In this document: positions 3,605 through 61,383 of the stretch, one piece after another | Layout of the letters: each line of letters opens with the position of its first letter | Numbering within the stretch: the stretch's first letter is position 1 | Assembly: GCA_963775955.1 (NCBI GenBank) | Contig: CAVZKT010000001.1 | Coordinates: forward strand, 85,437-149,436 | DNA length: 64,000 bases | DNA from: Candidatus Moraniibacteriota bacterium | GTDB lineage: Bacteria; Patescibacteriota; Minisyncoccia; Moranbacterales; UBA2206 | Direction: 5' to 3' | Position numbers and translations under genes: made by a program | Notes under the pieces: generated by a model | The model's input: the letters and a program-made list of their open reading frames with translations, nothing else | Database searches by the model: none | What the model was told of the DNA's origin: nothing

Positions 3605-4156
3605 ATGGTCAGTTTTTTTGAAAAAATTTTATCTGGTCAAGCGGGAAGCATTAGCTTTAATAAGAGTCCCGAAAAAATTGTTAAAGAAAAAGAAAATCTT
3701 GAAGGGATATTCAATAAGCTTTTAGCAAGCTTAAACAGTTCTGAAAATCAAGAAAATATTGACAATATTGTCGGTTCAAATTCTGCCAGCGAATTGGCTA
3801 AAAACATTCAAATGGCCAAAGATATTTTAGAAAAAACGGGACTGTTGGCCAGAAGCCACTCAAACGGCAAGGAAATTTTAAGAAATATAGAAGTTTCATT
3901 TAATGGTTTCTTGCGAAGGGATGCTGGAGCTAAAGAAAAAGGATTGGCAGGGTATGCGGATATTATAAAAGAAAACTATAATGAATTGAAAGATTTTGCC
4001 GATTTAATTATTGAATGTGGGGATTACAGAGAAAAAGAATTTGGAGATTATTCCGGATATTTAGCTGAGGACGAAGAAGAAGGTGCAAAGTTGCGGTCAA
4101 ACATGCGCGATTATATAGAAAAGTGCAAGCAAAAAATAAGAAGTCGGAGTAACTAA
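3605..4156 (+). CDS. Hypothetical protein (183 aa, helical, acidic C-terminus)
   Basis: Clean ORF tightly packed between glyQS and the next gene. No motif recognised. Confidence 0.5.
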   Translation: MVSFFEKILSGQAGSISFNKSPEKIVKEKENLEGIFNKLLASLNSSENQENIDNIVGSNSASELAKNIQMAKDILEKTGLLARSHSNGKEILRNIEVSFNGFLRRDAGAKEKGLAGYADIIKENYNELKDFADLIIECGDYREKEFGDYSGYLAEDEEEGAKLRSNMRDYIEKCKQKIRSRSN

Positions 4157-11277: not shown

Positions 11278-11394
11278 TTGACCCCGTTAGAAATTCATCT
11301 ATAGCCAGTGCTTTCAGTAAGAACTCGAGTGAAGCGGCTTTGCCTTAGTGTTTAAATATTAGTAGCTATTTGCAAAATTTCTAACGGGGTTGAC
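11278..11394. mobile_element. MITE-like element, termini CCCCGTTAGAAATT / AATTTCTAACGGGG, flanked by direct TTGAC
   Basis: 14-nt terminal inverted repeats. TTGAC at 11278-11282 and 11390-11394. The internal GTGAAGCGGCTTTGCC module is shared with the copy at 61149-61266. Confidence 0.7.
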
Positions 11395-18280: not shown

Positions 18281-18715
18281 ATGCACTATTGCGAAGGAAC
18301 GCTTATTACTTGTGAGGATTTCCGCCTACATCAGCGGAAAGACGGACGCAACTGCGTCGCCAAATTTGTAAAAAACCTTGGCATTGATTGCGATCTGATT
18401 ACCCGGGGAGGAGGCGTGCAGGATATAGTGCGGCCGCCAAGAGAAGACTTTCGTATTTCAATTTTCAGGGACGAAAAAGTTTCCGACAAAATCCACAGTG
18501 CCGGAACGATTATTCTCTTAAACCATGAAGATTGCGGCGCGTACGCGGGCTTAAAGTTTTCTTCAAGGGAGGAGGAATTTGCCCAGCATTACAATGATCT
18601 TAGAGAAGCAAGAAAAATACTTCTTGAAAATTTTCCCGGGAAAGCAGTAATGCTTTATTTCGCGAAGCTTAAGCCCGGAACAAGCGACGCGTTTATTATT
18701 AAAGAAGTGCTATAA
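18281..18715 (+). CDS. Hypothetical protein with beta-carbonic-anhydrase-like CxDxR ... HxxCG motif pair
   Basis: 144 aa. TCEDFRLH and NHEDCGAY motifs, strong RBS. Family call is speculative. Confidence 0.4.
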   Translation: MHYCEGTLITCEDFRLHQRKDGRNCVAKFVKNLGIDCDLITRGGGVQDIVRPPREDFRISIFRDEKVSDKIHSAGTIILLNHEDCGAYAGLKFSSREEEFAQHYNDLREARKILLENFPGKAVMLYFAKLKPGTSDAFIIKEVL

Positions 18716-21331: not shown

Positions 21332-23197
21332 ATGTGCGGAATCGTGGGTTATATCGGCAAACAAAAAGCGGTGCCGATCCTTATTGAAGGGCTAAAAAGA
21401 CTGGAATACCGGGGCTATGACAGCGCCGGTTTAGCCGTAATTGGAAAGAATAAAATTACAAATGTTAAAGCTGTCGGAAGAGTGGCGGAACTTGAAAATA
21501 AAATCAACGGCCTGCCCGCATCGCTATGCGAAGCATTGCAGGCGGGGAAAAATATTTCAGGAACAATTGGCATAGCGCACACCCGTTGGGCGACGCACGG
21601 AAAACCAAGTGACAGAAATTCCCATCCCCACTCCGATTGCAAAAAAGAAATATACCTTGTCCACAATGGAATCATAGAAAATTATAAAGAACTGAAAGAA
21701 CGGTTAACTAAAAAAGGCCATAAATTTACTTCTGAAACCGACAGTGAAGTTATTGCGCATCTCATTGAAGAATTTAATAAAAAATTAGATTTTAAAAATT
21801 CAGTCATTGAAGCGCTGGAACTGCTTAAAGGAACTTATGGCTTGGCCATTATCAGCAAGCGGGAGCCGGACAAAATAATCGCCGCGCGAATGGGCAGTCC
21901 TTTGGTAATCGGGCTCGGGCGCGATGAAAATATCATTGCTTCCGATGTTTCGGCGATTGTGCGGCACACCGGTCAGGTGATATACCTTGATGACGGAGAA
22001 GTGGCGATTGTCGCGCCGGAAAACTACGAAGTGATAAATATCAAAAAGAAAAAAGTTGAAAAGAAAATCACTAGGCTTGACTGGTCTGTTGAAAAGGCGG
22101 AAAAGGGAGGCTGCGCCCATTTTATGCTCAAGGAAATTTTTGAACAGCCGCATACGATTGAAGATGCAATTCGGGGAAGGTTGGTTGTGCCCGAAGGAAT
22201 GGCAAAATTAGGAGGACTGCGAGATGTCGCAGAACGCTTAAGAGATATTAAAAAAATTATTATTGTCAGCTGCGGAACTTCGTATTATGCCGGGCTTATT
22301 GGCGAATATATGATTGAAGAATACGCTGGAATTCCAGTGGAAGTGGAATATGCCAGCGAATTCCGCTACCGAAAACCAATACTGGGTAAAAATACCGCAG
22401 TGATTGCCATCTCCCAATCCGGTGAAACAGCGGATACTTTGGAAGCGGTGCGAGAGGCAAAAAATAAAGGCGCGCTGGCCCTGGGAATAGTGAATACAGT
22501 CGGATCTACGATTGCCCGGGAAACTGACGCCGGGGTTTACAATTATGCCGGGCCGGAAATTGGGGTGGCTTCAACCAAATCTTTCACTTCGCAGCTTAGC
22601 ATTTTTGTTTTGATAACTCTGATGCTCGGACGACAGCGGGAAATGTCATTTGTGATGGGTAAAAGAATCGCCGGCGAAATGGCAAAAATTCCGAAATTAA
22701 TAAATGTCGTGCTAGAAAAAAGTAGCGACATTAAAAAAATCGCAGCTAAATATCTGAAATATGAAAATTTTTTGTATCTGGGAAGAAAATATAATTTTCC
22801 CATTGCCTGCGAAGGAGCGCTAAAGATAAAAGAAATTTCCTATGTCCACGCGGAAAGATATCCGACGGGCGAAATGAAGCACGGGCCCATCGCCCTGATT
22901 TCCAAAAATTTTCCTTCCATTTTTATTGCTCCACGGGACAGCGTGTATGAAAAAAATATTTCGGGCATGCAGGAAATAAAAGCGCGAGGCGGAAAAATAA
23001 TTGCCATTGCCACCAAGGGGGACAAGGAAATAAAGAAACTGGCCGATGATGTGATTTATATCCCCAAAACCCTGGAGATGCTCACGCCGTTGTTGTCCGT
23101 CGTGCCGTTGCAACTTTTCGCGTATTATGTCGGAACATTAAAAGGCTTTGATGTGGATAAACCCCGTAACCTGGCAAAGTCAGTAACAGTAGAATAG
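21332..23197 (+). CDS. glmS: Glutamine--fructose-6-phosphate aminotransferase
   Basis: MCGIVGY start, GIAHTRWATHG, two SIS domains, C-terminal DVDKPRNLAKSVTVE. Confidence 0.97.
   Translation: MCGIVGYIGKQKAVPILIEGLKRLEYRGYDSAGLAVIGKNKITNVKAVGRVAELENKINGLPASLCEALQAGKNISGTIGIAHTRWATHGKPSDRNSHPHSDCKKEIYLVHNGIIENYKELKERLTKKGHKFTSETDSEVIAHLIEEFNKKLDFKNSVIEALELLKGTYGLAIISKREPDKIIAARMGSPLVIGLGRDENIIASDVSAIVRHTGQVIYLDDGEVAIVAPENYEVINIKKKKVEKKITRLDWSVEKAEKGGCAHFMLKEIFEQPHTIEDAIRGRLVVPEGMAKLGGLRDVAERLRDIKKIIIVSCGTSYYAGLIGEYMIEEYAGIPVEVEYASEFRYRKPILGKNTAVIAISQSGETADTLEAVREAKNKGALALGIVNTVGSTIARETDAGVYNYAGPEIGVASTKSFTSQLSIFVLITLMLGRQREMSFVMGKRIAGEMAKIPKLINVVLEKSSDIKKIAAKYLKYENFLYLGRKYNFPIACEGALKIKEISYVHAERYPTGEMKHGPIALISKNFPSIFIAPRDSVYEKNISGMQEIKARGGKIIAIATKGDKEIKKLADDVIYIPKTLEMLTPLLSVVPLQLFAYYVGTLKGFDVDKPRNLAKSVTVE
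21511..21549. repeat. Hairpin element P1 (inverted copy) translated in frame within glmS
   Basis: CCTGCCC-GCATCGCTATGCGAAGCATTGC-AGGCGGGG. The core is the exact reverse complement of the tgt copy. Confidence 0.85.
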
Positions 23198-23215
23198 CAA
23201 GGGATATGATGCCTG

Positions 23216-23246
23216 CCCCGCACCAAGCGAAGCTTTGGTGCCGGGG
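23216..23246. repeat. Hairpin element P2 (CCCCGCACCAAGC-GAA-GCTTTGGTGCCGGGG)
   Basis: Read directly. A second copy with a flipped loop is at 30921-30951. Confidence 0.85.
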
Positions 23247-23290
23247 TGGATAAGCCTCGGAATCTGGCAAAAAGTGTGACAGTTGAATAG
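23246..23290 (+). other. Second, untranslated copy of the last 14 glmS codons plus stop
   Basis: Encodes VDKPRNLAKSVTVE*, identical to 23153-23197, with 10 nt differences in 8 codons, all synonymous. It is 48 nt downstream of the real stop and in the same frame. Confidence 0.9.
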
Positions 23291-27062: not shown

Positions 27063-28373
27063 ATGTCGGAGCCAATAATTGATATCAAAAAACTGCAGGT
27101 TGCCTACAATAGGGGCAAAGCCAATGAAATCCGCGCGCTGGATGGCATTGATGTCAAGATCTATCCCGAAGAATATGTTATTATCTGCGGCCCTTCCGGC
27201 TGCGGCAAGTCGACGTTGCTTTATACTATCGCCGGCCTGCAGCCTGCGACCTCCGGCGAGGTGGTCATTGAGAGCAAGGATTTAGCCAGGATGAGCAAAG
27301 AAGAAATGGTTGAACTTCATCAGATGAAAATCGGCATGATTTTTCAGGCTTTCTACCTTATCCCCTCAATCCATGTTCTTTTTAATGTCTGCCTCCCCAA
27401 GATTTTCCGGGGGATAGACAAAAAAACCAGGCAAGAAGGGGGAATGAAGCTTCTTCGCCGTTTTAGCATCGCGGAACAAGCCAGAAAGTTTCCCAGCCAG
27501 CTTTCCGGCGGACAAAAACAAAGAGTGGCTATCGCCAGATCTTTAGTAAATAATCCCGGCATAATTTTGGCTGATGAACCGGTAGGGAACCTGGATAGCG
27601 AATCCGCGGAAAATGTTTTGAATATATTAAAAGAATTGAATGAAGTGGACAAAAAGACAATTATTTTAGTTACTCACAACGCAGAGCACCTTCATTATGC
27701 CGATCGCATATTACACATGAGGGACGGAAAAATTGTCAGCGAGGAAGTAAATAAGGATAAGCGTCCGAAAGACGCGCTAAAAGAAGAAATTGCCAAAGAG
27801 CCGGATGTGATTTCCAGCGAGCTAAAGCTTTTAATGAGAACGTTCAGAAACTTTTCTCCCCAGCAAATTGGAGGGCTTTTAATTCCCTATAAAGCCAAAC
27901 AACTAATCAATCATATTATTATGGAACTGACTGAAGAGCAAATTGCCGCGGCGGAAAATTTTTTGAAAGATCTGCTGTTTAAGAATATTGAAATGGAAGC
28001 TTTTGAAAAAAACATAGATCTAGACCTCAATGAAGGCGGGGGCGGGTGGAACAAGCTGAGAGCAAAATCTTTTTCGGCTAAAGTCAGCGATATTACGGGC
28101 CAGGCAAAGGCTTTGGACAAAGATTACGAAAAAGCCTTACCGGGTTTTGCCGATTATCTTTTGCGTGTTTTTGATCTGAAAATGCAGCCGGAAATTAAAG
28201 CGCGCCTGATTACATTTTTAAAGCTAAGGCTGGAGAATAAAATTGACGCCTTCGGCGTGCAGGAACGCCTAGACGCGCCAATATCTGTTGGTGGAGTGGG
28301 GCTCTATAAAAATACATCTGAAAAAATGATGAGGGAAATAGAGATGGTGATGCTATTAAAATATTCAGCATAG
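27063..28373 (+). CDS. ABC transporter ATP-binding protein (MacB/FtsE-like) with a ~200-aa C-terminal extension
   Basis: [35 protein letters not shown]. The extension is of unknown fold. Confidence 0.9.
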
Positions 28374-28390
28374 ATTAAATTCATCTGGTT

Positions 28391-28547
28391 ATCCCGCACT
28401 AAATTCCGAGTACAATCCGGGGTAATCCAGGGCGTCATTCACGGAATCGCCTGCGGCTTAGATGGTTATTAATAAAAATTTATATTGCGAATTAGTGCGG
28501 GATGCTCAATTTTGTAGCCGCTCGCATAGCTCGCAGACAAAATTGGC
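28391..28547 (+). promoter_or_regulatory. Conserved structured leader/repeat (copy A) abutting the permease start codon
   Basis: Arms are ATCCCGCACTAAATT / AATTAGTGCGGGAT. Blocks shared with copy B (51855-52007): ATTCCGA, CGGAATCGCCTG, GGCTTAG, GGGATGCTCA, GACAAAA. Confidence 0.65.
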
Positions 28548-29762
28548 ATGAGATTTGCGGATCTATTCAAATTATCAACCAGAATGTTTAAAGCGAGGAC
28601 TTCGCGGACACTTTTGACAATTCTCGGCATGAGTATTGGCATTGGGGCCATTCTCTTTTTAGTTTCCTTTGGCGAGGGTTTGCGCAAGACTCTTCTGGAA
28701 AGAATTACAACATCTGAATCCCTGTTGACATTAGACGTGACAGAGGCGAAGGCCGGAATAGTTTTACTCAATGGGGATATGATTAAAAGCATTGAGCAGA
28801 TGAATGGCGTATCAGAAGTAAGCCCGGCGTCGCATCTTACCGCGCAGGGCCTTATGGGCGATATTTCAGCAGACTTAAGCGCGATTTCTGTTAAGCCCTC
28901 CTTTCTCCGGCTGGGCGGAATTAAAATTTTAGAGGGGGAAGCGCTGAATGACGCCAACCCCGAAGGGGTGGTTATGACTTCAGCAATGGCCCAGGTTTTT
29001 GGGAAAAAGGATGCTGCGGAAATGATCGGAAAAGAAATCACCTTTGTTTTCTTTATGCCCAAAAAAATGGAAACTGAAAGCGGGGAAGATTTACAGAATA
29101 ATCTTGAAAAAATGGATTTTGACAAGAAATACAAAATCATCGGAGCAATGGAGGGAGAGGATAATGTGATTTACATCAACTCAAGCTCATTGGATGATTT
29201 GCAACTCAATAGTTTTGTCCAAGCGAAAGTGAAATGTTCATCGCAGCAAGCGATGGGAACAGTGCGTGATACAATTTTGAATCAAGGGCTTTCAGTCTCT
29301 TCTCTTTCGGATACTGTTGACCAAGCTAATCAGATTTTTAGCATCGTCCGCATCGTGCTGATGCTTTTTGGCCTGGTCGCCCTGGTAGTCAGCGCCATTG
29401 GAATGTTTAACACGATGACCATCGCGCTTCTTGAGCGAACCGAAGAAATCGGAATTATGAAATCCATTGGTGCTTCCGATGGCGCAGTGTCCGTGATGTT
29501 TATTATGGAGTCCACCATCATGGGATTTTTGGGCGGGCTGGCCGGAATAGTAATCGGACTTTTGGGCGGCGTGGTTTTCAATCAATTAATTAATTTTATT
29601 GCGTCCCGTTTTGGCGGACAGGCAGTGAGCCTGTTTCACAGCCCGCTTTTATATATTATTGTGATAGTCGTTTTTTCCGGCGTGGTTGGTTTGCTCACTG
29701 GTTTTGTGCCGGCCAGGCGTGCCAGCAAAATCGATCCCCTGGATGCGTTGAGATATAAGTAG
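28548..29762 (+). CDS. ABC transporter permease, FtsX/MacB family
   Basis: 404 aa. N-terminal TM, periplasmic domain, then the C-terminal 3-TM FtsX domain ending RRASKIDPLDALRY. Confidence 0.9.
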   Translation: MRFADLFKLSTRMFKARTSRTLLTILGMSIGIGAILFLVSFGEGLRKTLLERITTSESLLTLDVTEAKAGIVLLNGDMIKSIEQMNGVSEVSPASHLTAQGLMGDISADLSAISVKPSFLRLGGIKILEGEALNDANPEGVVMTSAMAQVFGKKDAAEMIGKEITFVFFMPKKMETESGEDLQNNLEKMDFDKKYKIIGAMEGEDNVIYINSSSLDDLQLNSFVQAKVKCSSQQAMGTVRDTILNQGLSVSSLSDTVDQANQIFSIVRIVLMLFGLVALVVSAIGMFNTMTIALLERTEEIGIMKSIGASDGAVSVMFIMESTIMGFLGGLAGIVIGLLGGVVFNQLINFIASRFGGQAVSLFHSPLLYIIVIVVFSGVVGLLTGFVPARRASKIDPLDALRYK

Positions 29763-29852: not shown

Positions 29853-29948
29853 ACCCTGTTAGAAATTAAGCAGAATTTTTTGCGGGGAGATTTTAATTAT
29901 TTATGTAATTTTGCTGTTTTTAACAGACGGCAGAATTTCTAACGGGGT
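29853..29948. mobile_element. MITE-like element (ACCCTGTTAGAAATT ... GAATTTCTAACGGGGT) abutting folD
   Basis: Terminal inverted repeats of the CCCCGTTAGAA family. The right end overlaps the probable GTG start of folD (29947). Confidence 0.65.
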
Positions 29949-30787
29949 GAAACTACTTAAGGGCAGAAAAATTGCCGATAAAATTTTGGCGGACTTGAAA
30001 AGGGCCGTAAAAAAACAAAAAAGTAAGCCAGCGCTAGCGGTTGTTTTAGTTGGAAAAAATGGGGCGTCCGAAATATATGTTAAGCTAAAAAAACAAGCCG
30101 CCAAAAAAGTCGGCATCAATTTCTCTCTGCATCGATTTTTCAGAAATTCCGGTGAAAGAGAAATTGTCGGAAAAATAAAAGAACTCAATGGGGATAAAAA
30201 AATAAGCGGCATTATCGTCCAATTGCCGCTTCCGAAAAATTTGAGAATGCAGAAAATTATCAACGCCATTTCGCCCGGGAAAGACGCAGACGGATTCCAC
30301 CCGGAAAATTTGAAAAAATTTATGGCCGGGAAAAATGGAGTTGAACCAGTTTTTCCCAAGGCGATTATAAAAATCCTGGAAGCTATTCCAGAATCCGGGA
30401 TTTTGAGAAGGTAAAAAGGCGGCGATTATTACTAATTCCAAAGAATTTGGAAATACTATGCAAGCCGCGCTTAAACAAAAAGGAATTGAGGGACAGTATA
30501 TTCTACACAAAAATTATAAAAAAAGTTTATCCGCCATTGGGCGGACGGACATAGTAATTACTGCTGTTGGAAAACCAGATCTGATTACCAGTGACATGAT
30601 AAAAAAGAATGTGGTAATTATTGACGGAGGAATTGTCAAAAAAGGCAAAAAAGTTTTGGGCGATGTTGATTTTGAGTCAGTAAAAAATAAAGTTTCTTAC
30701 ATAACTCCCGTTCCCGGGGGCGTGGGCCCGGTAACTATTGCATGCCTCCTGGAAAATGTTTTTCTTTTAAGCAAAAAATCCCGGTAA
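29947..30787 (+). CDS. folD: Bifunctional methylenetetrahydrofolate dehydrogenase/cyclohydrolase, frame change near 30403-30407
   Basis: IIVQLPLPKN, GKDADGFHP, TPVPGGVGPVTIACLLEN. GTG start inferred from the alignment pattern MKLLKGRKIA. Confidence 0.88.
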
Positions 30788-30799: not shown

Positions 30800-30806
30800 A
30801 TGGATG

Positions 30807-30889
30807 TGCCCGAGGAGAGAGTCGAACTCTCATGAGATTGCTCTCACACGATTTTGAGTCGTGCGTGTCTGCCATTCCACCACTCGGGC
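30807..30889 (-). tRNA. tRNA-Leu (anticodon CAA)
   Basis: Folded by hand. Acceptor GCCCGAG/CUCGGGC, anticodon stem CACGA/UCGUG with loop CUCAAAA, long variable arm, T arm GAGAG-UUCGACU-CUCUC, discriminator A. CCA is not encoded. Confidence 0.9.
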
Positions 30890-30920
30890 ACCATTTGTGC
30901 GGGGTAAATCTGCCAGCTTG

Positions 30921-30951
30921 CCCCGCACCAAGCTTCGCTTTGGTGCGCGGG
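30921..30951. repeat. Hairpin element P2 (CCCCGCACCAAGC-TTC-GCTTTGGTGCGCGGG)
   Basis: Same stem as 23216-23246 with the loop reverse-complemented. An additional GCGGGG (30899-30904) pairs with CCCCGC. Confidence 0.85.
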
Positions 30952-30990
30952 TTCCGCCATCTCGGCAAATATGATATACTGGAGTTAATT

Positions 30991-34428: not shown

Positions 34429-36656
34429 TTACTTTTCAAACTTACACTCTTTGTTTGAACATTTGATTTTGCCTTTGGCGGCGAAGACAAGAAGGGACTT
34501 GCATTGCGGGCAGATTTCGCCGTTAGGTTTGTTCCAGAGCGCGAAGTCGCATTTGGGATAAGTATTGCAGCCGTAAAACAGACGGCCGCGTTTGGATTTT
34601 CGCTCAACAATATCCCCAACATTGCATTTAGGGCAAGTAATGCCCGTTTTCTTTTCAATTTTTTTAATGCCTTTGCATTGGGGATAATTGGAACAGCCGA
34701 GAAAAGTTCCAAATTTGCCGCGCTTCACCGCCATCGGCGCGCCGCAAATTTCGCAAATTTCGCCCCTATGTTCTTCATCCACTTTTTTTTCCGCGTCTGT
34801 TTTTTCCGTATGCTTGCAATTCGGATAGTTGGAGCAGGCGATGAATTTTCCAAAGCGCCCGAACTTCATGATCAAATCCCCGCCGCAATCGGGGCAGGCG
34901 CGGTCAAGTTTTTCCTGAAAATCTTCCTTTTTCACTTCTTTGGTTTTGGCCTCCAGATTTTTTTGGAAGGGCTTGTAAAATTCGCGGATTACCGGAACCC
35001 ACTTTCTTTTGCCTTCGGCAATTTCGTCAAAATCCATTTCAATGGTGGCGGTGAATTTAATATCCACTATTTCCGGAAAATGAGCGACCAAAAGATCATT
35101 GACTAAGGCGCCGATTTCCAGGGGATATAATCTTTTTTCTTCATTTTTATCGACATATTTTCTTTCAATAATAGTGGAAATTGTCGGCGCGTAAGTTGAC
35201 GGCCGGCCGATGCCGTTTTCTTCCATAACTTTTACCAGGGTGGCCTCATTGTAGCGCGGAGGCGCGGCTGTTTCTTTTTGGGCGGCCAGGATTCCGACCA
35301 AATCCAGATTTTCGCCGATTTTCATTTTTGGCAAAAGATTTTCGCCGTTGGCTTTGCCGTCCGTAGACTTTTGAGATAACCGTCAAATTTAACAGTGGAT
35401 CCATTAGCCTGCAATAAATATTTGTTTTTACCAGTAGCATCCACTTCGAGTTTTACTGAATCGAAAATTGCCGGCTGCATCTGGGAAGCAAGCATCTTTT
35501 TCCAGATGAGGCTGTATAATTTATATTCGCTTGGATCAATTTTGGCTTTCAGGTCATCCGGAGTTTTGTCGGGATAGGCCGGACGGATGGCCTCATGTGC
35601 TTCCTGGGCGCCTTTAGATTTGGTTTTATAAAATTTCGGATCAGGGAGAGCGTAATTTTTTCCGAATAACCGCGCGATGGTTTTTTGCGCGGAAAGCATT
35701 GACTCTAAAGAAAGATTCAGGCTGTCGGTGCGCATATAGGTGATATATCCTTTTTCGTAAAGTTTCTGCGCCTTGCTCATGGTGAACTTGGCGGAAAATC
35801 CCAGATTGCTGATAGCCGCCTGCTGCAGGGAAGAAGTGGTGAAAGGAGGGGAGGGATAACGCAGAGTTTCTTTTTCAGTTATATTACTGACTTTGAATTT
35901 AGCGCGCTTAAGATCGGCCACAATTTCGTCAGCCTTTTTCTGGCTGTCGATTAAAGTCTTTTTAATTTTATAATCGCCGGCGAATAATTTTAAGATTGCG
36001 GCTTGTTCAATTTTCTCACCGTTTTTTTCCGTGAGATTGGCCGTAAAATCCTGCTTTGAGCTCTGAACTTTGAACTTTGAATTTATAGCGTAGTATTTTT
36101 CAGACTTGAATTTTTCGATTTCTCTTTCTCTTTCAACGATCAGGCGCAGAGCTACCGATTGCACGCGCCCGGCGGAAAGTCCGCGGCGGATTTTTTTCCA
36201 GAGGAACGGGGAAAGTTCAAAACCGACCAGACGGTCCAAAATTCTTCTGGCTTGCTGGGCGTCCACCAGATTAAGATCAATCGCGCGCGGATTGTCTAAT
36301 GCTTTTTCAATGGCGCTTTTGGTAATTTCGTGAAAAACAATGCGCTTTGCTTCTTTGGGATTTAAATCCAAGGCTGAAACCAAATGCCAGGAAATAGCTT
36401 CTCCTTCGCGGTCTTCGTCAGTGGCGAGAATCACGTCTTCAGATTTTTTGGCCAGTTCTTTGAGTTCCTCTACTCTCTCGGCGGATTTGGCCGGAATAAC
36501 ATATTCCGGCGCAAAGTTATTCTCAATATCAATGCCCATTTTTTTGGCGGGCAGATCGCGGATATGGCCGTAGGAAGATTTAACGGTAAAAGCCTTCCCT
36601 AAAAATTTGGAAATAGTTTTGGCTTTAGTGGGGGACTCAACTATAACTAGCTTCAT
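34429..36656 (-). CDS. topA: DNA topoisomerase I, frame change near 35322-35334
   Basis: KLVIVESPTKAKTI, TOPRIM DEDREGE, and four C-terminal Cys4 zinc ribbons. Start at MKLVIVES (36656); an alternative is 36677. Confidence 0.92.
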
Positions 36657-36728
36657 GGAGCATGGAACATGGAACATGGAACAATTTTTCTTTAAATTGT
36701 TTTATGTTCTATGTTATGTGTTATGTGA
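36654..36728. repeat. Hairpin built from CATGGAA words (left) and GTTCTATG/GTTATGTG words (right)
   Basis: CATGGAGCATGGAACATGGAACATGGAAC ... GTTCTATGTTATGTGTTATGTG. It overlaps the topA start and the dprA stop. Confidence 0.75.
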
Positions 36729-43854: not shown

Positions 43855-43934
43855 CATATAACATACAACATGAAACATGTAACAAAAACTACTAATTAGA
43901 AAATTGTTACATGCTATATGCTTCATGCTTCATG
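43855..43934. repeat. Hairpin built from ACATG/CATGA words
   Basis: CATATAACATACAACATGAAACATGTAACAA ... TTGTTACATGCTATATGCTTCATGCTTCATG. The right arm runs into the next ORF's start. Confidence 0.75.
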
Positions 43935-51609: not shown

Positions 51610-51854
51610 AAAAGGGGTAAAACTTGATTTTCCGTAACGCATTTGACAGGATAGACAGCCATATGATAGATTTAGATACTGAGAAAGCGGGGATTCTTTA
51701 GGTGAAAATCAGGCGTTTTTCAAAACCAAAACCAAAAGTCTAAAACAAAAAATATTAAAAACTGATTGATAGAAACAGGTTTTTGATTTTTATTTTTAGG
51801 CTTATTTTTTTTGAATTTTTTAAATTTTCAAGTATATTAAAGAAATAGTAAGGC

Positions 51855-52007
51855 ATCCCAGTACCGATTCCGACTGAGATTTGCCAAATATAATAATTTT
51901 TCTGCGGAATCGCCTGATGGCTTAGTCAGGGTATAATTTAAAGATTTAATTTAGAATCGGTACGGGATGCTCATTTTTGCAGCTTCTCGCTATCGCTCAA
52001 GACAAAA
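51855..52007 (+). promoter_or_regulatory. Conserved structured leader/repeat (copy B) abutting the ftsZ start codon
   Basis: Arms are ATCCCAGTACCGATTC / GAATCGGTACGGGAT. Same conserved blocks as copy A (28391-28547). An internal GGGTATAAT is present. Confidence 0.65.
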
Positions 52008-53214
52008 ATGGCAGAAATCAAACCACCCGTAGAAACATTCGCGCGCATTAAAGTCGTGGGCGTTGGCGGTTCTGGAGGAAGCGCGATCAGCCGGATGATT
52101 GAATCAAAACTGCGCGGCGTTGAATTCGTGGCGATCAATACTGACGCGCAGGCCCTGCATCACAATAAAGCCACGGAAAAAGTGCATATCGGAAAAAATC
52201 TGACCAAGGGACTGGGGGCCGGGATGAATCCGGATATCGGACGGCAGGCGGCCGAAGAGAACCGCGAAGAAATTCAGGAGGTGCTTAAAGGGCTCGGATA
52301 TGGTTTTTGTCACTTGCGGATTAGGCGGCGGAACCGGGACAGGCGCGGCGCCGATTGTGGCGGAAACTGCCAAAGAACTGGGAGCTCTCACGGTCGCGGT
52401 GGTAACTAAGCCGTTTGCTTTTGAAGGCGCGCAAAGAAGGGCGATTGCGGAAGAGGGACTGGAAAATTTGCGCGAACGAGTAGATACTCTCATTATTATT
52501 CCCAACGACAAGCTGCTGCAGATTATCGACAAGAAAACGACGCTTATAAATTCCTTTCAAGATTGTGGATGATGTCCTGCGCCAGGGCGTGCAGGGGATT
52601 TCGGATCTTATTACCAAGCCAGGAGTGGTGAATGTTGACTTTGCCGACGTGAAAGCGATTATGGCAAGACAGCGGGTCAGCTCTTATGGGGATTGGCGTG
52701 GGACCGGGGGAAAATCGCGCGGCGGACGCGGCCAAGGCGGCCATCAACAGCCCGCTTTTGGAACTTTCCATTGACGGCGCCAAAGGCGTGCTTTTCAATG
52801 TCAGCGGGATCCAATGATCTGACAATGCTGGAAATCAATGAAGCGGCCAATATTATCACTGAATCCATTGACCCGAACGCCAAAGTCATTTTCGGCGCGG
52901 TGGTGGAGGAAACTATCAGAAAAGGGGAGGTGCAGATTACAGTAGTCGCGACCGGATTTGACGCGGAAAGAGTGAAGGAATCTCCAATAGAAAAAATGTC
53001 GCGGCTTTCCATTGAGCGCGGTAAAAATCAGGAAAGCGAAGGAAAAGAAAAGTCAAAAATTACTTTTCCGGCGCAGGGCGAGCACAAAATGATTATCGAG
53101 GAAAAGGTCCAGCCGAAACCGCAAAGAACTTTCACGCAGGTGGAAAAATCTTTAGAGGATGAGGATGACGAACTGGAAATCCCGGCGTTCATCCGGAGGA
53201 AGATGGGGAAGTAG
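52008..53214 (+). CDS. ftsZ: Cell division protein FtsZ, 4 frame changes
   Basis: [42 protein letters not shown], and C-terminal [12 protein letters not shown]. Junctions near 52295, 52560, 52665 and 52812 each look like one extra base in a GG/GGG or AA run. Confidence 0.93.
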
Positions 53215-53225
53215 ATTCACGTGGC

Positions 53226-53318
53226 ACATAACTCGTAACTCATAACGCATATTTATTAAAATAACCTTGAGAAATCAGGGTTATTTTTTTAGTGTCGAGT
53301 TATGGGTTACGAGAGTTG
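53226..53318. repeat. Word hairpin (CATAACTCGTAACTCATAAC / GTTATGGGTTACGAG) enclosing the ftsZ terminator
   Basis: The inner AATAACCTTGA-GAAA-TCAGGGTTATT hairpin plus T7 (53260-53290) is a rho-independent terminator. Confidence 0.75.
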
Positions 53319-60337: not shown

Positions 60338-61041
60338 ATGGTGTTGGGCGGTTACCAAAAACTTACCCTCATTGATTATCCCGGAAAAATTGCCACCACG
60401 GTTTTTACGGTTGGCTGCAGTTTTCGCTGTCCGTTTTGCCATAATCCGGAATTAGTTAAACATGGAACATGGAACATGGAACAAAGAACAACGATGGAAA
60501 AAGAGTTTTTTGAGTTTTTGAAAAAAAGCAAAGGCAAGCTGGAAGGCGTGTGCATTACTGGAGGCGAGCCGGCGATCCAGCCTGATTTGGAAGAATTTAT
60601 CAAAAAAATAAAAAAGCTGGGTTTTTTGGTAAAGCTGGATACTAATGGCAGCCGGCCGGATGTGCTCAAGAAACTTATGGATAAAAAACTTCTGGATTTT
60701 GTGGCAATGGACATAAAAAGCAGCTCGAAAAATTATATTAAAACGACAGGATTAAAAGTGGATATCAAAAGGATAAAATTAAGCGTTAATTTGATAATGA
60801 AACAGCAAACTGCCGTATGAATTTCAGAACTACGGTTGTGCCCGGCATCCACACGGAAAAAGATTTTGAGGAAATCGCCAAATGGATCAAAGGCGCCAAG
60901 ACTTATTATCTCCAGGAATACCGCGAAATTAAAATTCTGGATCCCAAGCTTAAGAAAAAAACCAAAGGCAAAACCATTGATCTGGAAAAAATTAAGAAAA
61001 AAATCGAGAAAAATTTCGGGAAGATGGGAATCAGGAGGTAA
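60338..61041 (+). CDS. nrdG: Anaerobic RNR activating enzyme (radical SAM), 2 frame changes near 60800-60825
   Basis: CSFRCPFCHN cluster, ITGGEP. YEFRTTVVPG is readable only after removing one A (AAA run) and one base in ATTTCAG. Confidence 0.88.
60461..60482. repeat. CATGGAA x3 array inside nrdG
   Basis: The 22-mer CATGGAACATGGAACATGGAAC is identical to 36663-36684. Translated as HGTWNMEQ. Confidence 0.9.
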
Positions 61042-61051
61042 AATCATACCT

Positions 61052-61383
61052 ATGAGAATTTATATAAAAGTCCTGCCTCGTTCGTCAAAAAATGAGGTCG
61101 CGAAAGTTTCCGAAGGGGAATATAAAGTGAAGCTGACCGCCCCACCAATTGACCCCGTACGAAGTTCATCAACAATTTTGTTTTTACAAACACGCTCAAG
61201 CGAAGCGGCTTCGCCTCTATATTTTTCTGTCAGCAAGCGCTTCTCAAAACTTCTAACGGGGTTGACGGCGCGGCCAATAAAATGCTATTAGATATACTAG
61301 CGGAGTATTTTAGTATTAGCAGAAGTTCGTTAAAAATCATCGGCGGAAAAACTGCCAGGGTTAAATTAGTAGAAATTTCATAA
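61052..61383 (+). pseudogene. yggU: DUF167/YggU family gene interrupted by a 113-nt MITE-like insertion
   Basis: MRIYIKVLPRSSKNEVAKVSEGEYKVKLTAPPID (frame 2) resumes as GAANKMLLDILAEYFSISRSSLKIIGGKTARVKLVEIS* (frame 1) after the insertion. Confidence 0.8.
61149..61266. mobile_element. MITE-like element (CCCGTACGAAGTT ... AACTTCTAACGGGG) flanked by direct TTGAC, inside yggU
   Basis: TTGAC at 61149-61153 and 61262-61266. The internal CTCAAGCGAAGCGGCTTCGCC module matches the copy at 11278-11394. Confidence 0.75.

Follow-up and report, generated by a model that had tools for sequence, protein, structure and literature searches.

Small non-coding repeats that alter the expression of neighbouring genes are already known in bacteria. 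The Correia elements of Neisseria (CREE/NEMIS) create promoters and RNase III sites, and thereby alter the expression of adjacent genes (PMC2649163). The YPAL/RU-2 element of Yersinia, 168 bp long, has internal inverted repeats, no TA ends and target duplications of 3-26 bp; its mobility was deduced from empty versus filled sites, and ERIC elements are co-transcribed and alter messenger RNA (mRNA) stability (PMC2229807). Here we describe a repeat which docks onto start codons and either supplies the start codon or pairs with it; nothing of this kind is described in Rfam 15 or in the papers that we searched. It came to light as two related sequences in a 64,000-nt stretch of a Candidatus Moraniibacteriota genome (contig CAVZKT010000001.1, positions 85,437 to 149,436; hereafter the window). 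From the Pfam assignments of the flanking genes, copy A (28391-28547) lies between an ABC ATPase gene (27063-28373) and a MacB/FtsX-like permease gene (28548-29762), and copy B (51855-52007) between ftsA and ftsZ. The interpretation that we hold, with slightly more belief than doubt, is that both are copies of a Moranbacteria-specific, insertion-prone, dispersed structured repeat, in effect a mobile, portable leader, transcribed together with the gene that it precedes and taking the place of that gene's native translation start region.

The two copies align with a mean column identity of 77%. An earlier note, made from the sequence of the window, had described them as a shared structured leader, and the blocks that it listed are indeed common to both: ATTCCGA, CGGAATCGCCTG, GGCTTAG, CGGGATGCTCA-N-TTTTG-N-AGC and AGACAAAA-N-TGGCA, with the correction that the gap between CGGAATCGCCTG and GGCTTAG, given there as two nucleotides throughout, has that length in copy B only and is 1 nt long in copy A. 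Exact matches to the 12-mer CGGAATCGCCTG and to the 17-mer CGGGATGCTCANTTTTG occur in the window at copies A and B only. The outer helix keeps its pairing despite the sequence differences, as had been proposed: three base pairs are changed on both sides between A and B, and each copy has one bulged A (coordinates of this and the other features in Table 1). The second helix (ATTCCG/CGGAAT), claimed to be conserved, was found in both copies. A third helix, the long 3' hairpin (CAATTTTGT/ACAAAATTG in copy A, CATTTTTG/CAAAAATG in copy B), also displays a compensated change. When folded as single sequences, both copies are more stable than their shuffled versions (z of -2.4 for A and -4.2 for B). 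The statement that both end at the start codon is accurate in that each 3' end lies directly before an ATG (28548 for A, 52008 for B), with the qualification that the 3' hairpin of copy B extends into the gene and pairs with the ATG and the GC of codon 2.

A scan of genomes (one per species) with the pattern CGGAATCGCCTGN{1,3}GGCTTAG returned 38 loci, 37 of them in Candidatus Moranbacteria or in unclassified Patescibacteria-type metagenome-assembled genomes (MAGs); the last one, in Methylococcus, is a chance match. Every true match contained the entire 160-nt unit and ended at the start of an open reading frame (ORF). The covariance-model search that the earlier note had called for was run with a model, R1, built after aligning 33 public copies: it detected 45-49 copies in the genome-scan loci and, in the window, only copies A and B. 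An independent scan of metagenomes with a pattern for the 5' strand (ATCCCGCACCAAN{0,1}TTCCGAA) gave 52 loci, of which 16 were chance matches; the remaining 36 hold 48 matches to the covariance model. This brings the total to about 90 copies of 160-180 nt each, nearly all from genomes or metagenomes of Candidatus Moranbacteria, a lineage of the candidate phyla radiation (CPR). No copies were found in viral contigs, and a phage origin was ruled out on that ground. Nor does the element belong to a known RNA family (riboswitch, ribosomal-protein leader, T-box, ribozyme or tRNA-like), since neither gathering-threshold nor permissive searches of Rfam gave a match: with Rfam 15 at the gathering threshold the 64-kb window yields one transfer RNA (tRNA) only, a permissive scan of copies A and B (E up to 10) gave only noise (E 5), and 144 kb of related loci gave tRNAs only. 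ARAGORN found no tRNA overlapping any copy, and the literature searched gave no description of such an element, be it for Moranbacteria or for other CPR bacteria.

The fold consists of four parts, P1, P2, the mini-hairpin P3 and the long hairpin P4. P1 is a helix of 11-12 bp (AUCCCGCACCAA / UUGGUGCGGGAU), the 3' strand of which closes the 5' domain. The AUUCCG/CGGAAU base of P2 leads through an internal loop to a distal hairpin that is variable, and this distal arm folds better than shuffled sequences (median z of -1.2 for 66 copies). P3 is GCC-UNC-GGC followed by UUAG, with a constant stem and a loop that varies (UGC, UCC, UAC, UUC, UGAU). Next comes a linker of 29-30 nt, A/U-rich and predicted to be unstructured (median minimum free energy, MFE, of 0.0). 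P4 is a long irregular hairpin, (U/C)GC(U)CAUUUUUGU-AG-CUNC-UC-GC-loop-GC-UC-GNAG-A-ACAAAAAUGGC(A/G), with a median MFE of -15.6 kcal/mol for its region; in the copies called class I below it holds the start codon. Segment lengths are nearly fixed: 54-59 nt from CCC to GCCU and, in 42 out of 45 copies, 39-41 nt from GGCU to CGGGA. A few copies carry additions. A small palindrome, GCCAGCCTACCGGCAGGCAGGTAGC, is inserted in P4 of three copies from different sources (L037 3316-3512, L050 611-807 and L087 1745-1942), an insert related to it is present in P2 of L052 (1194-1388), and P3 is expanded in L046 and L080; the element is itself a target of nested insertions.

Covariation was assessed on 45 copies. 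Over the 32 modelled pairs the structure is 95.8% paired, and 22 of these pairs (101 cells) display double-sided changes, on an alignment that was fitted to the model and with some changes inherited by sub-families. None of 500 shuffles reached the observed values, and controls in which the strands were slid were 32-45% paired. P1 is 96.4% paired, with 8 of its 11 pairs changed on both sides, and P4 95.3% paired, with 13 out of 15. The closing pair of P4 links a base of the element to the third position of codon 2: 33 copies have U-A and 10 have C-G, one-sided changes being absent, and both forms are seen among orthologous nusG copies. In front of the S12 and S7 genes, which start with AUGCCA, a re-tuned 5' strand (UUGGCAU or UGUGCAU) restores pairing. 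P4 thus compensates for bases specific to the downstream gene; therefore the start-codon hairpin is maintained in place, and not merely in a master copy. These data support the view that the element is structured and under selection rather than a recent duplicate, as had been argued from two copies; the additional ones preserve the covariation and lie at gene starts, not in random contexts.

All copies are in the sense orientation and in a nucleotide-exact register at the start of a gene, which defines two classes. In class I, the final five bases, ATGGC, are the gene's own ATG-GCN, so that the AUG is inside P4 and the protein begins with Met-Ala (Met-Pro for S12 and S7). In class II, about a third of the copies, the unit ends with ...TGGC directly before the ATG or GTG of the gene. 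The offset of the start codon from the end of the model is -16/-17 (class I) or -11 (class II) in about 90% of copies; the exceptions are L004 and L034, which are truncated, L008, with a collapsed P4, and L026, shifted by 9 nt. In class I the AUG is fully paired (median unpaired probability 0.00), against a median of 0.39 in class II. The downstream, or carrier, genes number more than 40 and are mostly ribosomal-protein genes, with an enrichment in growth functions. The carriers confirmed by Pfam are the genes for ribosomal proteins L3, L5, L11, L14, L16, L23, L27, L28, L36, S3, S7, S8, S12, S14, S17 and S19, for NusG, NusB, Obg, MnmA, SecY, MreB, MraZ, MurA and GAPDH, for an ATP-cone ribonucleotide reductase, an HlyD adaptor and the MacB permease, and, with unrelated functions, for HypA, a class IV aminotransferase and a DUF3048 protein. 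Others were recognised by N-terminal sequence and gene order (L7/L12, L15, L18, L22, L29, S5, MraY, a PilC-like protein and a site-2 protease). Two contigs, L072 and L018, have four copies each within one S10-spc cluster.

The history of copy B can be read from six relatives (L091-L096; FtsA 92% to 71% identical), in which the ftsA-ftsZ spacers (170-319 nt) are devoid of the element; a look-up of the exact FtsA protein of the window returned no record. There, ftsZ has a TTGACA-17/18-TAGATT promoter and a native leader ending with ...AAAA(C)AT|ATGGCAGAAAT, the native start being ...AAAA(C)AT|ATGGC(A/G)GAAAT. In the window the order is promoter, native-like leader, AAGGC, element, and then ATGGCAGAA / ATGGCAGAAATC. 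Copy B is, by all appearances, an insertion at ATGGC with duplication of the target, the upstream start codon being inactivated. Since the conserved ftsZ promoter lies upstream, the whole element is inside the 5' untranslated region (UTR) of ftsZ. This bears on the proposal that the repeat is a mobile promoter, in which a -10 box, located either in the linker, which is A/T-rich (GGGTATAAT in copy B), or in the equally A/T-rich 5' flank, would let transcription start inside or just before the element. The linker does contain TATAAT-like words, -10-like hexamers are often found 5-8 nt upstream of the TGG motif described below, and TTGAAT-16-TATATT directly precedes copy B. However, the 73 aligned flanks reveal A/T richness only, with no position-specific -10 and no phased signal, the promoter scan finds no site around copy A, the internal TATAAT is not conserved in place, and a start within the linker would leave the covariation of P1 and P2 unexplained; we consider the proposal very improbable. 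The earlier note's candidate, the internal GGGTATAAT, fares no better: it is not conserved in sequence or position across copies and the promoter scan makes no call on it.

Two further observations concern ftsZ. When compared with three relatives, the gene (52008-53300) displays four single-base insertions, near 52283, 52553, 52666 and 52806, three of them within short homopolymers; the reading frame is disrupted, the longest ORF beginning at the start codon having 133 aa, which reflects either an assembly error or a pseudogene. In L093, one of the relatives without the element, the ftsZ 5' UTR contains a long hairpin (ATCCAGCACTAACTTTGCAC...GTGCAAAGTTAGTGCTGGAT, ~4006-4068), like P1 of copy A, about 55 nt upstream of ftsZ.

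Copy A is likewise missing from three relatives (permease 87%, 84% and 73% identical), in which the two genes overlap (GCATGAGA) or abut; a fourth relative has an unrelated CGAAT-rich repeat at the ATPase/permease junction, and no element. Both the spacer preceding copy A (ATTAAATTCATCTGGTT) and the TAG of the ATPase gene are absent at the empty site of L097, L098 and L099. Within this spacer, CTGGT is a variant of the NTGGC motif revealed by base composition at each position upstream of P1. A longer target duplication at copy A was considered and found unconvincing, the flank ATAGATTAAATTCATCTGGT agreeing with the 5' end of the permease gene at only ~13 of 22 positions. Judged by the sequences of the relatives, both window copies are shown to be lineage-specific gains. 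The earlier note had suggested a cis-regulatory RNA for cell-division and envelope genes. This is not supported: the same element stands before more than 40 genes and is missing at both orthologous junctions in relatives, so that its presence at both ftsZ and an FtsX-like gene is fortuitous, the two insertions having occurred independently.

Seven ribosomal-protein junctions hold the element in some Moranbacteria contigs and lack it in others: L5-S14, S14-S8, S5-L15, L15-SecY, L6-L18, L22-S3 and S17-L14. The empty S14 site reads stop codon, A/T-rich spacer of 13-71 nt, then ATGGCAAA; the filled one reads stop codon, about 10 nt, (A/G)TGG(G)C, T, ATCCC...GACAAAA, then ATGGCAAAG. A TGG[CGT] motif lies directly 5' of P1 in 22 out of 47 class I copies and 5 out of 26 class II copies, the background being 4.6% (Fisher p 0.024). 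In class I, a native ATGGC can often still be made out just 5' of the element, usually with its ATG mutated; this relic indicates that the unit inserted at ATGGC and duplicated it. Recent bursts are indicated by copies that have identical variable arms, in L072/L086 and in L018/L031. The variable arm of the orthologous rplK copies L011, L035 and L029 is common across MAGs, which implies vertical inheritance after insertion. As a short non-coding multicopy element with filled and empty sites, the repeat has a trait of miniature inverted-repeat transposable elements. The same slots of ribosomal operons, and the ATPase/permease junction, are also occupied by a second family, the CGAAT-rich palindromic repeats (...TACGAATTACGAATCAATACGAATATAC...GTATATTCGTACAAATTCGTAATTCGTAG...). 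These were seen in L081 (S17-L14, L5-S14, S14-S8, S5-L15 and L6-L18), in L072 (L22-S3 and S17-L14) and in L100 (2355-2467); one copy ends with GTAGACAAATGGC|ATG, a terminus identical to that of the start-codon element.

An occupancy that differs between genomes would also be expected of purely selfish DNA, i.e. a REP-, PATE- or YPAL-like non-autonomous palindromic element with hairpins serving single-stranded DNA transposition or recombination, perhaps on the bottom strand, and with a functionless RNA fold; only insertions at start codons would survive, a usable start being restored there by chance. The bursts with identical variable arms, the duplication of the ATGGC flank and an excess of A.C over G.U on the sense strand (see below) agree with it, as do the short hairpins with the P1 sequence elsewhere in the window (23213-23246 and 30921-30953) and the other palindromic families in the same slots of L081, L072 and L100. 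Yet transposability alone does not predict that P4 compensates against codon 2 of nusG, S12 and S7. Moreover, all copies are sense and in exact registers, old diverged copies keep every helix (the window copies being only 77% identical), the termini lack inverted repeats, and viral contigs hold no copies. We see this as an unlikely explanation of the whole.

Another possibility is a dedicated cis-regulatory leader, riboswitch or protein-binding operator, through which one ligand or protein would control the translation of a growth regulon (ribosomal proteins, Nus factors, division and envelope genes), P4 being opened or closed over the start codon and duplicated copies being retained for regulation. 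The strong conservation of unpaired nucleotides, the fixed segment lengths, the paired start codon of class I and the enrichment of downstream genes in growth functions are in line with such a device, and nusG and rplK copies are common to several MAGs. The AUGGC of the 5' flank and the 3' AUGGC can, in addition, both pair with the same GCUCAU, in a switch-like manner; but the upstream AUGGC tracks class I rather than all copies, so that an insertion scar fits better than an anti-sequestor. The start codon of class II copies, a third of the total, is outside the hairpin (median unpaired probability given above). The carrier genes differ freely between related genomes, with hypA, the class IV aminotransferase and DUF3048 genes unrelated to the rest, and both window copies are missing in close relatives. 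In our estimation a dedicated leader has a low probability.

Several more specific candidates were set aside. The P1 5' strand CCCGCACCA resembles a tRNA 3' end, and GCUCAU an initiator anticodon loop; ARAGORN and the Rfam tRNA model were negative at every copy and the tRNA-like (or permuted tRNA) likeness was deemed a coincidence. Mimicry of ribosomal RNA for a ribosomal-protein repressor, suggested by the likeness of CGGAAUCGC and CCCGCAC to two universal 16S segments, was dropped: the partners differ, a 9-mer match is near chance, and none of the loci contains ribosomal RNA. A BoxA (NusB/NusE site) in UGCUCAUUUUUGU was rejected, these bases not being conserved in sequence but covarying with the start region. 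An upstream ORF running through P4 (LVRDAHF...) does not keep its frame, the loop length varying by 2 nt. An intrinsic terminator made of an extended P1 and a U run was rejected as well, because transcription reaches the competing strand only later and a multiloop of 100 nt lies within P1.

In the portable-leader interpretation, the element would be co-transcribed with its gene: it is downstream of the conserved promoter at ftsZ, and at the ABC pair it splits genes that normally overlap. The native leader would be replaced by a standard one, with the 12-bp closing helix P1 around a junction and then P4. Inside P1 the junction would present the P2 arm, the GCC-UNC-GGC mini-hairpin and the 30-nt unstructured A/U-rich strand; the 3' strand of P4 would make up an A-rich translation start region (ACAAAAAUGGC). 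What this leader does is most likely to act as a portable cassette for translation initiation and mRNA processing, because the genome hardly uses Shine-Dalgarno sequences: these are nearly absent at the gene starts of the window, where native upstream regions are A/T-rich. Clear GGAGG-type sites in the window were seen only before the ORFs at 18281 and 46952. The A/U-rich strand could be a ribosome landing or standby site, and P4 could gate the start codon or set how accessible it is; nucleases could plausibly act on P4 and P1, and a common factor may recognise the conserved core.

A number of observations weigh against this interpretation. Co-transcription, processing and the effect on translation are all inferred. 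A start codon buried in a hairpin before genes that need high expression is a poor fit to a plain translation cassette. Class II copies have no clear target duplication, and there are no terminal inverted repeats: TATCCCGCACC at the 5' end is not the reverse complement of GTAGACAAAA(ATGGC) at the 3' end, the inverted repeats of P1 being internal and enclosing only the first two thirds of the element. The nusG and rplK orthologous copies are conserved in several MAGs, as expected of a regulatory leader. Lastly, selection on a sense RNA should favour G.U over A.C, and the opposite was found. Non-Watson-Crick helix cells are A.C or C.A in 44 cases versus G.U or U.G in 16 (25 versus 14 in the metagenome set), one P4 pair has 11 A.C cells and no G.U, and sense and antisense MFE values are equal. 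The A.C excess together with the equal folding of the two strands implies that the folded strand could be the bottom strand, or DNA. Selection for a fold of the bottom strand, as DNA or complementary DNA (cDNA), could account for the asymmetry, as could a mutation bias.

A quite unlikely variant takes this asymmetry into account. The element would home to start codons, an internal guide, GC(U)CAU, pairing with a target AUG-GC, possibly through a bottom-strand DNA or cDNA intermediate, and the same pairing would afterwards serve as a translational operator. GCUCAU can pair with both the flanking and the terminal ATGGC, and in the S12 copy L010 the flank is AAGCC, the end ATGCC and the guide UUGGCAU; class II flanks do not fit. 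If homing were true, the A.C excess on the sense strand would be explained by the bottom-strand intermediate, and a CPR lineage without Shine-Dalgarno sequences would have gained a mobile, uniform control point in front of its genes for ribosomal proteins and growth, recognised by a single trans-acting factor or by the ribosome.

Whichever reading holds, up to four junctions within one ribosomal-protein contig are filled by a start-codon repeat, in CPR bacteria, which have tiny genomes and a largely unknown gene regulation. If the portable leader acts as RNA, it gives an entry point to translation start and to the coordination of ribosomal proteins in these bacteria; should it be no more than selfish, it is a clear example of mobile DNA that survives by rebuilding the initiation region of a gene. 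Shared leaders of this type will mislead regulon inference in CPR genomes.

Table 1. Features of the two copies and of their surroundings (positions in the window)
Feature	Position	Strand	Evidence
Copy A, class II	28391..28547	+	covariance-model match, 158 bits, E 2.7e-37
Spacer ATTAAATTCATCTGGTT, from the ATPase TAG stop (28371-28373) to P1 of copy A	28374..28390	+	
Copy A, P1 5' strand ATCCCGCACTAA, partner 28492-28503	28391..28402	+	sequence, helix 1 covariation
Copy A, P2 arm: ATTCCG 28403-28408 / CGGAAT 28442-28447, internal loop and variable distal hairpin between	28403..28447	+	
Copy A, P3 mini-hairpin GCC-TGC-GGC, then conserved TTAG	28449..28461	+	
Copy A, A/U-rich linker, predicted unstructured	28462..28491	+	
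Copy A, P1 3' strand TTAGTGCGGGAT	28492..28503	+	
Copy A, P4: GC(T)CAATTTTGT / ACAAAATTGGC; mid-stem, UC/UC internal loop, apical GC/GC stem	28504..28547	+	
Probable ftsZ promoter, sigma-70-type, TTGACA-18-(TG)TAGATT, outside the repeat	51643..51672	+	10/12 matches; conserved in L091-L096
AAGGC, putative relic of the original ftsZ ATGGC start, duplicated at insertion, ATG inactivated	51850..51854	+	relatives' leaders
Copy B, class I, in the ftsZ 5' UTR	51855..52012	+	covariance-model match, 131 bits, E 1.5e-30
Copy B, P1 5' strand ATCCC(A)GTACCG, partner 51958-51968	51855..51866	+	
Copy B, P2 arm: ATTCCG 51867-51872 / CGGAAT 51905-51910	51867..51910	+	
Copy B, P3 mini-hairpin GCC-TGAT-GGC and TTAG	51912..51925	+	
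Copy B, A/U-rich linker, contains GGGTATAAT	51926..51957	+	
Copy B, P4: GC(T)CATTTTTG / CAAAAATGGC, ftsZ start codon included; 3' end made up of ATG 52008-52010 and the GC of codon 2	51969..52012	+	

Other repeats were noticed in the window. The end of a glmS-like gene (DKPRNLAKSVTVE*, the last 13 codons) is present twice, at 23156-23197 and 23249-23290, with synonymous differences only; between the two lies a 34-nt hairpin with the P1 sequence (CCCCGCACCAAGC-GAAG-CTTTGGTGCCGGGG, 23213-23246). The segment 23150-23290 looks like a mini-insertion that brought its own copy of the gene end. A similar hairpin (CCCCGCACCAAGC-TTCG-CTTTGGTGCGCGGG, 30921-30953) adjoins the tRNA-Leu(CAA) gene (30806-30889), with an extra GTGCGGGG word at 30894-30904. 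At 11278-11394, immediately downstream of a gene, a different long inverted repeat, TTGACCCCGTTAGAAATT ... AATTTCTAACGGGGTTGAC, surrounds about 80 nt and precedes a run of T; its 3' arm recurs in part at 29922-29952 and 61236-61266, and the match of this repeat to the covariance model is weak (23 bits). Short tandem-like CATGGAACATGGAACATGGAACA repeats (family D9) are located at 36654-36684, 43855-43885 and 60461-60491.

How does the start-codon element compare with described systems? Like it, the Correia elements are non-coding dispersed repeats of ~100-160 bp located by genes, co-transcribed, with long hairpins and an occupancy that varies between strains (PMC2649163). They differ by their terminal inverted repeats, TA target duplication, insertion in either orientation and variable distance to the gene; the present element has no terminal inverted repeats, a single orientation and a nucleotide-exact start-codon register. 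YPAL/RU-2 and ERIC/IRU, from Proteobacteria and not CPR bacteria, have no sequence similarity to it; they are not tied to start codons, and neither supply nor pair with one. A start-codon-exact register is not mentioned in two reviews of small mobile repeats of bacteria (PMC2229807, PMC10969869).

REP/BIME and the elements derived from IS200/IS605 share with the present element the lack of terminal inverted repeats and the dependence on hairpins. IS200/IS605 elements such as IS608 insert 3' of a short specific sequence, which is read by base pairing with an internal guide. GCUCAU can be set beside the IS608 guide, being complementary to both the ATGGC of the 5' flank and the ATGGC of the 3' end. 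REPs are, however, only 20-40 bp long, IS200/IS605 elements make no duplication, and class II copies of the present element share no target. No gene for a Y1 transposase or RAYT was seen in the 64-kb window and the short loci, where no search was aimed at such genes.

With autoregulatory leaders of ribosomal-protein genes, and with riboswitches sequestering the start codon or the Shine-Dalgarno sequence, the element has in common a structured 5' leader preceding ribosomal-protein genes and an initiation region contained in a covarying helix. Known ribosomal-protein leaders are gene-specific mimics of ribosomal RNA at orthologous positions, whereas here one sequence precedes more than 40 unrelated genes with a variable occupancy. 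The intercistronic RNase III hairpins of phage T7 can stabilise the mRNA or activate translation of the downstream gene. They too are repeated and irregular, with internal loops, and lie between cistrons just upstream of the next start codon; unlike the present element they are single hairpins of ~60 nt without the P1-P3 domain, and are not mobile. The element belongs to none of the Correia, ERIC and YPAL/RU-2 families, its closest kind being the co-transcribed dispersed repeats that alter the expression of their neighbours: it is a new, lineage-specific, insertion-prone structured leader and not a dedicated cell-division switch.

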